Part shown: positions 13,061 through 14,075 of the stretch, one piece after another
How the letters are laid out: each line of letters starts with the position of its first letter
How positions within the stretch are numbered: position 1 is the stretch's first letter
The notes under the pieces: model-generated
Database searches by the model: none
Told to the model about the DNA's origin: nothing
Seen by the model: only the letters and a program-made list of their open reading frames with translations
Position numbers and translations under genes: made by a program
Assembly: GCA_964419615.1 (NCBI GenBank)
Contig: CAYQPU010000007.1
Location: forward strand, 1-51,563
Origin: an uncultured Methanosarcinales archaeon
GTDB taxonomy: Archaea; Nanobdellota; Nanobdellia; Woesearchaeales; JAGVZT01
Reading direction: 5' to 3'
Length of the DNA: 51,563 nucleotides

Positions 13061-13074
13061 TGCGGGGGAGGGGA

Positions 13075-13220
13075 CTTTCATAATCTTTTACTAGTTTTAA
13101 CCAAAGGCAGCACTCTTATGTGCTTGAGTCGTGGCCATCATGTTTTCATGAACGCCACATTATGGGACTTTATGTCCCATTACTTTTGGTCAAGCTTTTG
13201 CGCAAAGCGGAAAAGACTGA
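13075..13220 (-). other. tRNA intron 3 (position 59/60, 146 nt, multi-branched structure)
   Basis: BHB: central helix UUCA/UGAA, bulges AA|U and AG|U, flanked by the T-stem and the intron helix AGUCUUUU/AAAAGAUU. Confidence 0.9.
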
Positions 13221-13252
13221 TTTGAACCCCCGGACCCACTAAGGGACAGGAT

Positions 13253-13277
13253 ATCTCAGGTACAATTGAGTGTCCAT
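13253..13277 (-). other. tRNA intron 2 (canonical 37/38, 25 nt)
   Basis: Central helix CUUA/UGAG, bulges AG|A and AU|A; the intron-side helix is weak (relaxed BHB). Confidence 0.9.
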
Positions 13278-13309
13278 CTTAAGTCCTGCGCGTTTGACCA
13301 GACTTCGCT

Positions 13310-13341
13310 TTAAGGATATGTGGAACAAATGCCCACACTCT
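13310..13341 (-). other. tRNA intron 1 (position 8/9, 32 nt)
   Basis: Central helix GGGG/CCUU, bulges GU|A and AA|A, intron helix GUGUGG/CCACAU. The AG redundancy also allows 9/10 or 10/11, but only 8/9 satisfies BHB geometry. Confidence 0.8.
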
Positions 13342-13942
13342 ACCCCCGCGTGTCTGGTATTTTTGATATGGGTTTAATCAAGTTTAAAAAATTTTCCTTT
13401 TGTTTATTTGTAACTCTGAGTACATAATGGGGTTTTCTATTTTCCTTTAGTATAGGTCCTCTCATAGTGTGTTTAAATCCCAAATCACCAAGTAATGCAG
13501 AAATATCATAAATTCCTTTTTTATTCGATGAGAAGAATCTGATGCCATTTACAGCTGAACCGTCTCCGTCAAAAAAACCTCTGATAAAAGCAGTTTTGCA
13601 TTTTAAATCTCCAGTTTTTACTGCTTCTGGAACTTTCCAAGTAAAACTCCCCAAATTTGTGTAACTAATTATGTCTCTAATTATTACCATTTTACAAATA
13701 TTTATTTTATTATATTTTGTGATTTTGGGATAATAACCATATTGTTGATTTAGTAAATTTTGATAATGCACAAGTAACTTGATATCCTTGTTATATAACT
13801 CAATTCTTTCAGATTTATCATTCTTATAAAATCTCTTTTTTCCTCTATCTTTACCCCAATAACTTGAAAAAGATACAATGTGTGAGCCTTCTGCACATAA
13901 TAATCCCAAAATTTCTGACAGTTCTGGAGTTATTTTATTCAT
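13340..13942 (-). mobile_element. Free-standing two-motif LAGLIDADG homing endonuclease gene overlapping the tRNA-Leu 5' end
   Basis: Motif 1 LSEILGLLCAEGS and motif 2 TAFIRGFFDGDGS, both with the acidic catalytic residue. SD GAGGTGA at 13956-13950. No intein Hint residues. Last codons ACG CGG GGG TAG contain tRNA nt 1-8. Confidence 0.88.
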
Positions 13943-13945
13943 AAA

Positions 13946-13976
13946 CAAATCACCTCACAAAATTAGGGAGGATTTG
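13946..13976 (-). promoter_or_regulatory. Hairpin covering the endonuclease Shine-Dalgarno sequence
   Basis: CAAAUC-CUC ... GAG-GU-GAUUUG pairs across the GAGGUGA SD, 4 nt before the ATG. Confidence 0.5.
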
Positions 13977-14075
13977 GTTTATAAGAGTCACGCGGGAATG
14001 TCCAGTGACATTTTAATAAATCGCAACATATATAAATACTAAATATCGTGAAATTATTAAAAAGAGGTATGATGT

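Follow-up and report, generated by a model that had tools for sequence, protein, structure and literature searches.

The window analyzed here is the whole 51,563-nucleotide (nt) stretch of contig CAYQPU010000007.1 (NCBI GenBank assembly GCA_964419615.1, positions 1 to 51,563, forward strand), from an uncultured Methanosarcinales archaeon of GTDB order Woesearchaeales, in the DPANN group. On its minus strand, between ppsA and ileS, a LAGLIDADG homing endonuclease gene runs directly into the sole tRNA-Leu(UAA) gene of the genome. We conclude with high confidence that this gene and the adjoining 5' end of the tRNA gene, including an intron at tRNA position 8/9, constitute a co-inherited cassette that is gained and lost among related genomes and whose splicing helix depends on the tRNA leader. 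The full mechanism that we favor, and consider reasonably probable, is an archaeal, tRNA-based form of collaborative homing.

The endonuclease gene occupies positions 13340-13942 (minus strand; ATG at 13942, stop codon TAG at 13342-13340) and encodes 200 amino acids (aa). A GAGGTGA at 13950-13956 (minus strand), seven nt 5' of the ATG, reads as a probable ribosome-binding site. The only domain found is Pfam LAGLIDADG_3 (PF14528, 1.8e-14), and this stand-alone protein rules out an intein-associated endonuclease, in agreement with an earlier note on this DNA, which had described an intact two-motif open reading frame (ORF) that is not an intein. Both LAGLIDADG motifs are present, LGLLCAEG (E20) and RGFFDGDG (D127/D129), and the acidic residues that end them are invariant among 33 homologues. 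A profile built from these homologues matches I-DmoI (~1e-6) and archaeal intein endonucleases in the PDB. An AlphaFold model (predicted local distance difference test score, pLDDT, 88.5) has the two-domain alpha-beta-beta-alpha-beta-beta-alpha fold, and its top Foldseek matches are to I-DmoI (template modeling score 0.64-0.72), the best match by both sequence and fold. WhiA is among the weaker fold matches, and the tail of the model (residues 200-202) has pLDDT < 50. The gene is single-copy in the host genome (1.48 Mb, 99% complete, 33% GC), and its product is an active-looking endonuclease of the I-DmoI type.

The tRNA gene is not visible in the raw DNA, where neither ARAGORN nor Rfam detects a tRNA anywhere in the 51.5-kb window. 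Splice-aware alignment to the intron-less tRNA-Leu(UAA) of a related genome places it at 13349-13061 on the minus strand with three inserts. Excising these yields an 86-nt sequence, and ARAGORN names the joined exons tRNA-Leu(UAA). Exon 1 (nt 1-8, GCGGGGGU) lies at 13342-13349 and is followed by intron 1 (32 nt, 13310-13341), which interrupts position 8/9 and has a bulge-helix-bulge motif with covariation. Exon 2 (nt 9 to 37) spans 13278-13309, intron 2 (25 nt, 13253-13277) sits at the canonical position 37/38, exon 3 spans 13221-13252, intron 3 (146 nt, 13075-13220) interrupts the T-loop, and exon 4 (13061-13074) ends in the discriminator A. The alignment and ARAGORN bear out the overlap with the ORF that had been read from the letters: tRNA +1 is 13349, nt 1-7 fall within the final sense codons of the ORF (ACG CGG GGG), and the stop codon consists of U8 and the first two bases of intron 1.

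The same locus is found within the genus both with and without the cassette. In a same-genus genome (G001), ppsA (88% aa identity) and ileS (86%) flank tRNA-Leu in the same arrangement, and the ileS-tRNA-ppsA interval lacks both the endonuclease gene and the 8/9 intron. Its tRNA-Leu has instead a 17-nt D-loop intron, which is common to a same-family genome (G002) and to other families. A second same-genus pair shows the same pattern, with the gene in G220 and not in G020. By alignment, the segment missing from G001 corresponds to approximately 13310-14009 (minus strand), comprises the endonuclease gene, leader, exon 1 and intron 1, and stands in place of about 85 nt of promoter and leader. A larger integrated element was rejected, as the two genomes differ by only ~700 base pairs (bp) between the conserved ppsA and ileS.

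The edges of this segment suggest how it was joined to the resident gene. Upstream, a TATA-rich block at 14027-14075 with a GAGGT before ppsA (ATG 14076) is ~90% identical to the endonuclease-free genome; it appears to be the ppsA promoter region and would mark the upstream edge of the insertion. The TATA sequence at 14036-14029, which the earlier note listed as an upstream candidate for start-site mapping, more likely serves ppsA, because it lies in this conserved block adjoining ppsA. A better candidate for the endonuclease promoter is TTATAAA at 13984-13978 (minus strand), inside the segment that the relative lacks. Downstream, intron 2 matches the G001 intron at 21 of 25 bases, and intron 3 resembles, by eye, the 62-nt T-loop intron of G002. 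The tRNA gene therefore appears to have kept its native 3' part and to have had its 5' part exchanged, a pattern such as a co-conversion tract may leave. A small ORF after the tRNA in G001 (37 aa), considered as a co-converted gene, has no match in the window.

Only intron 1 travels with the endonuclease gene. An insert of 15-38 nt at position 8/9 is present in all endonuclease-bearing alleles and in one of 28 endonuclease-free tRNA-Leu(UAA) alleles of the same order. The other introns of endonuclease-bearing alleles (positions 24, 33, 37/38, 64 and 71/72) vary freely, and introns 2 and 3 vary independently of the gene and are found in endonuclease-free relatives as well. Among 401 genomes sampled evenly across the order, the gene is present in nine (8 of 258 genera, ~2% of genomes), three of them with in-frame stops, and the 8/9 insert in 33. 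Eight of the nine gene-bearing genomes are among those 33; the ninth (G379) has an 8/9 insert with a variant exon 1 that the search pattern missed. The loci of two of these 33 genomes (G319 and G215) were left out of the allele-level analyses. The earlier note had all three introns spreading with the gene. This does not hold for introns 2 and 3; the 8/9 intron is present in every allele that has the gene, and such strict co-occurrence of a gene with the adjacent intron is what a collaborative-homing module predicts.

The tail of the ORF encodes more than protein, a feature that we add to the earlier description of the locus. Within the F-L-N codons of the last helix lies a candidate tRNA promoter, TTTTTAAA (13383-13390, minus strand), 41 nt before tRNA +1. 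A TATA-like box occurs at -39 to -45 in most overlap-type endonuclease-bearing alleles, and at -38 to -52 in 26 of the 28 alleles listed, gene-free ones included. The box probably serves as the tRNA promoter and would be brought along by the cassette. Closer to the tRNA, in the P-D codons, the leader hexamer CCAGAC (-8 to -3; 13352-13357, minus strand) pairs with GUCUGG of the D-arm (13303-13298, tRNA positions 15-20, in exon 2). Other alleles have CCAGGC, CCGGGC or UCAGGU, complementary to D-arm positions 15-20 (GYCUGG), and a leader A occurs only facing U16. The perfect 6-bp leader:D-arm helix is present in 40 of 47 intron alleles (shuffled leaders: mean 2.2, maximum 8) and in one of 28 alleles without the intron.

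This hexamer pairing forms the outer helix of a splicing motif, together with pairs -1:12 (CG, UA or UG), 1:11 and 2:10, of which -1:12 and 2:10 show compensatory pairs. In the central helix, G3-G6 pairs with CCUU of the intron, again with compensatory changes; G4A and G5A, for example, are each met by an intron U. Across 18-47 alleles, compensatory changes in these bulge-helix-bulge helices back the 8/9 register. The window sequence from leader to D-arm (13364-13288) folds into the predicted motif (z = -3.65). In the minimum-energy fold only the 3' bulge stays open, the bases of the 5' bulge being paired, and the motif therefore counts as relaxed; in that relaxed form it has the features of an archaeal bulge-helix-bulge (two 3-nt bulges, 4-bp helix, flanking helices, covariation). 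The host genome encodes a splicing endonuclease (tRNA_int_endo gene) and RNase P RNA. Because the leader is part of the outer splicing helix, the 8/9 intron would have to be removed before the leader, which implies an ordered maturation. The spliceable structure thus appears to straddle exon 1 and to be encoded in part by the endonuclease ORF.

A protein search returned 140 homologues of ~200 aa, of which the 120 listed are 47-67% identical to the window copy. Their sources are metagenomes of Nanoarchaeota, Woesearchaeota and Pacearchaeota; many of the proteins end in RG. In every retrievable locus of close homologues (43-67% identity; genomes and metagenomes), tRNA-Leu(UAA) directly follows the gene. 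The claim that gene and tRNA form a unit is therefore upheld across the close homologues. Almost all of the more distant relatives also adjoin tRNA genes, at their 5' or 3' ends.

The exact position of the stop codon was previously taken as meaningful, and this we do not find. In homologues the stop codon may fall on U8, within the first intron at a distance of at most 24 nt from +1, or ahead of the tRNA by 60-100 nt, in which case a TTTATAAATA box lies between ORF and tRNA. The tRNA 5' strand is translated in each of the three frames by one protein tail or another (RG; CGG or CEG; AGV or VGI), so the constraint is on the tRNA DNA and not on the peptide. The ORF seems simply to run on to the first available stop, the exact U8 stop being common yet incidental. 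The same observations bear on a proposal of the earlier note, that tRNA 5' processing (by RNase P) or splicing (by the splicing endonuclease) would also sever the endonuclease mRNA, at its stop codon, and so couple its expression to tRNA maturation. A stop beginning at U8 in the window and in at least eight homologous loci fits that proposal, and a read-through transcript would be cut there, given the established specificity of RNase P and the splicing endonuclease. Against it, the stop position varies from inside the intron to well upstream, where another TATA box intervenes, the ORF tails use three reading frames, and U8-A-G/A stops arise because U8 is universal and introns begin A-rich. The promoter-like box inside the ORF further suggests that the tRNA comes mostly from its own transcript. 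With a probable separate promoter and a stop that is not conserved, coupled expression is unsupported, and we give it little chance of being correct.

Sorting 47 distinct 8/9-insert alleles by the state of the upstream endonuclease gene, with tblastn for remnants, yields a series of decay. The gene is full-length and open in 22 alleles, long but disrupted in four, reduced to a short C-terminal remnant in two, and not detected in 18; for one allele the contig is too short to assign a state. In some intron-only alleles, decayed P-V-S-K codons can still be read in the stretch that separates the TATA-like box from the leader. Genomes with the intron alone, G003 and G044 among them, contain no member of the endonuclease family at E<=1e-20; 8/9 splicing therefore does not require the protein, which argues against a maturase.

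This series also bears on the idea that the protein has been domesticated, does no homing, and either assists the 8/9 splice (maturase or chaperone) or binds DNA to regulate the overlapped tRNA promoter, in the manner of WhiA. Such a role would suit a protein that is as conserved as IleS between families, an ORF that overlaps the tRNA promoter and the splicing helix, and the presence of WhiA among the weaker fold matches. Against it stand the invariance of both catalytic acidic residues, the rarity of the gene in the order, and stop-disrupted or gene-free alleles that keep the intron in a single essential tRNA-Leu(UAA) gene, in genomes that have no other copy, so that splicing does not depend on this protein. 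We regard domestication as very improbable.

Co-inheritance, presence/absence polymorphism, the decay series and the RNA pairing are observed directly in these alleles. Collaborative homing would account for them as follows. A compact selfish cassette at the 5' end of the sole tRNA-Leu(UAA) gene would consist of the endonuclease gene, the TATA-like box, the leader hexamer within the disordered tail of the ORF and, after 8 nt of tRNA, the 8/9 intron. The TATA-like box could keep the essential tRNA transcribed, and the hexamer with D-arm positions 15-20, the pairs of -1, 1 and 2 with 12, 11 and 10, and the G3-G6:CCUU helix would together build a substrate for the splicing endonuclease. The predicted targets of the enzyme are tRNA-Leu genes with no 8/9 insert, cut in their conserved 5' region close to that position. 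In the resident copy the insert would split the site and confer immunity. Repair from a cassette allele would then copy gene, promoter, leader and intron jointly. Later the endonuclease gene would decay and shrink by deletion until only a 3' stub with the promoter was left, and the 8/9 intron would persist as an orphan. From these comparisons we infer where the enzyme cuts, that the intron gives immunity and that the box acts as a promoter, as well as the direction of gain in this lineage.

Several points weigh against homing. The target site is placed by position alone. No genome pair has the near-identical endonuclease genes that would prove recent transfer, and the closest homologue of the window copy is just 67% identical among the matches listed. 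Pairwise endonuclease identity tracks IleS identity (Spearman 0.61), being about equal to or above it in most pairs; long vertical persistence with many losses could therefore also produce the present distribution. The endonuclease-positive set was found through the gene itself, and related genomes make the counts non-independent. Upstream flanks are not conserved between families, a difficulty for any account of how the upstream end of the cassette joins a new genome. Finally, some distant relatives (L031 and L170) lie flush against tRNAs that Rfam finds intact, without inserts, so an intron is not the sole way in which such genes avoid self-cutting.

Some of these points would be expected if the intron came first and the endonuclease was a later lodger. 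On this account the 8/9 intron and its leader helix are old and vertically inherited, the gene was inserted once upstream and has another target, and the association reflects common descent. The intron is indeed ~3.5 times commoner than the gene (33 vs 9 of 401 genomes), endonuclease identity correlates with IleS identity, and the 18 intron-only alleles have no endonuclease remnant detectable by tblastn. However, decayed coding sequence does lie upstream of the tRNA in several intron-only alleles, as P-V-S-K codons (L186) or as 60-70-aa or multi-piece remnants (L169, L161), and no family member was found without the intron. Gene and intron are also scattered over ~20 families and differ within genera, and the upstream flank, which is not conserved, could not supply a target usable in different families. 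We consider an intron-first origin unlikely and retain collaborative homing as the better account.

In collaborative homing as outlined in PMC6083498, an endonuclease from a free-standing gene cleaves alleles where the intron is missing, at the point where it would sit; the resident copy is shielded by its intron, and gene and intron spread as a pair; the example given there is F-CphI, a free-standing enzyme beside the intron-containing psbA of cyanophage S-PM2 (Zeng, Bonocora and Shub 2009, via PMC6083498). Trans homing of T4 mobE and I-TevIII is a related system (PMC2790892). The present locus resembles F-CphI/psbA in that a free-standing endonuclease gene adjoins a gene with an intron where the enzyme would cut, the ORF having only 8 nt between it and intron 1, and in that the intron would protect the resident allele and allow joint spread; here the co-occurrence of gene and intron is strict. 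It differs in several respects. The host is a cellular archaeon and not a phage, the enzyme is LAGLIDADG and not Endo VII-like, and the intron is a protein-spliced bulge-helix-bulge tRNA intron, in contrast to a self-splicing group I intron in a protein gene. In addition to the 8-nt gap between gene and intron, the ORF encodes the putative tRNA promoter and one strand of the splicing helix, and cleavage is here predicted only.

I-DmoI, I-Tsp061I and their relatives, encoded inside archaeal rRNA bulge-helix-bulge introns, share with this protein the fold, the size, an archaeal host and a protein-spliced intron in a stable-RNA gene. Unlike theirs, the present ORF lies outside the intron: it begins upstream of the tRNA, crosses the leader and exon 1, and reaches just the first bases of the intron; the host gene is a tRNA gene and the intron is just 15-38 nt. 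T4 SegB is likewise a free-standing homing endonuclease tied to tRNA genes, in a phage tRNA gene cluster (PMC13096335; PMC2988022). SegB differs in belonging to the GIY-YIG family and to a phage, with no intron partner and no tRNA overlap. The intact, stop-disrupted, remnant and empty states at one site recall the Goddard-Burt cycle, in which a homing element invades, decays and is lost. Here, in contrast, loss of the gene leaves a functional intron and a promoter stub; decayed alleles would stay immune, and the empty state would therefore rarely be restored.

Homing endonucleases have been described for archaeal rRNA introns. Our literature search found none for tRNA bulge-helix-bulge introns and no published description of this cassette. 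A 2026 census of Asgard tRNA introns tested several arrival routes and left the route open (bioRxiv 10.64898/2026.10.13.758758). The window locus and its ~47 sampled relatives offer a concrete DNA-level vehicle for one non-canonical tRNA intron, with intermediates of gain, decay and orphaning all visible in the sampled alleles, and a testable route for the spread of archaeal tRNA introns. The locus is also unusual in its packing of information, since one stretch of DNA serves as the end of a protein gene, promoter, splicing helix and tRNA start. More tentatively, free-standing LAGLIDADG endonucleases that attack tRNA genes might be a general driver of non-canonical tRNA introns in DPANN archaea, a suggestion that we hold to be possible though somewhat doubtful. 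A chance spliceable insert at the cut site would immunize the gene, spread with a cassette that brings the tRNA promoter and leader strand, and persist as an orphan intron. If so, many archaeal tRNA introns at odd positions would be scars of past homing.

Other structures around the ORF were considered and rejected. An inverted repeat with arms at 13345-13360 and 13981-13996 brackets the ORF and forms a strong duplex in the window (top 1% of shuffles). As a bulge-helix-bulge or splicing helix enclosing the whole ORF it was rejected as a conserved feature, since only one of ten homologous loci with usable upstream flank also reached p<0.05. The repeat is thus not kept in homologous loci and is probably outside the mechanism, consistent with the earlier statement that no bulge-helix-bulge surrounds the ORF. 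An ORF inside the intron that it mobilizes, in the style of I-DmoI, does not fit, since the ORF lies 5' of tRNA +1 and has no conserved enclosing helix. No group I intron or other known RNA around the ORF was matched by Rfam at gathering thresholds (one chance small RNA match, E=0.095). Direct repeats beside the ORF, as from a target duplication, gave weak matches at chance level.

One endonuclease-free allele, L072 (G045:C1), has no 8/9 intron and yet has a leader with AAAUACCAGACAUUAC and a TTTTTAAAT box that match the 3' end of the window ORF. It is the only intron-less allele with a leader:D-arm complement, and it may represent a precise intron loss. Relaxed tblastn upstream of L072 and L076 detected no endonuclease remnant beyond the leader and promoter stub.

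Other introns of tRNA-Leu were also recorded. Five of the 28 endonuclease-free alleles aligned, including L089, L092, L073 and L086 (G001, G002, G019 and G020), have an intron in the D-loop near position 20, at a distance of 12 nt from the 8/9 site; no endonuclease-bearing allele has it, and in G001, G002 and G019 it has the form AGG...GCCGGACAA. The 146-nt T-loop intron of the window has its ends and an AAAAGCUKGACCAAAA core in common with the 62-nt intron of G002 (L092), and one hairpin appears changed on both sides between the two. It has the look of an older intron of the family that has been enlarged. In the 99%-complete host genome (G000), ARAGORN or Rfam detect just 10-14 tRNA genes, so that most of its tRNA genes must carry interruptions at non-canonical positions.

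Distant LAGLIDADG_3 relatives (22-45% identity) occur across the phylum, and in about 26 of 28 loci, judged partly by eye, a tRNA end lies within ~100 nt. Some run 12-24 nt into tRNA 5' ends on the same strand, for example of Cys and Ser-like tRNAs (L027, L028, L030, L031, L159, L174). Others have their stop codon inside a TATA box ~30 nt before the tRNA, or end against the 3' end of a convergent tRNA. Further tRNA-abutting loci are L157, L158, L166, L167, L170 and L171, and L160, L162, L164, L165, L172 and L173. At L005 (G015:C3; ~1195-2030 of the oriented locus), a LAGLIDADG ORF follows a complete intron-bearing tRNA and is itself followed by a second copy of the T-arm and acceptor 3' strand of that tRNA, like the duplicated attachment site of an element in a tRNA 3' end.

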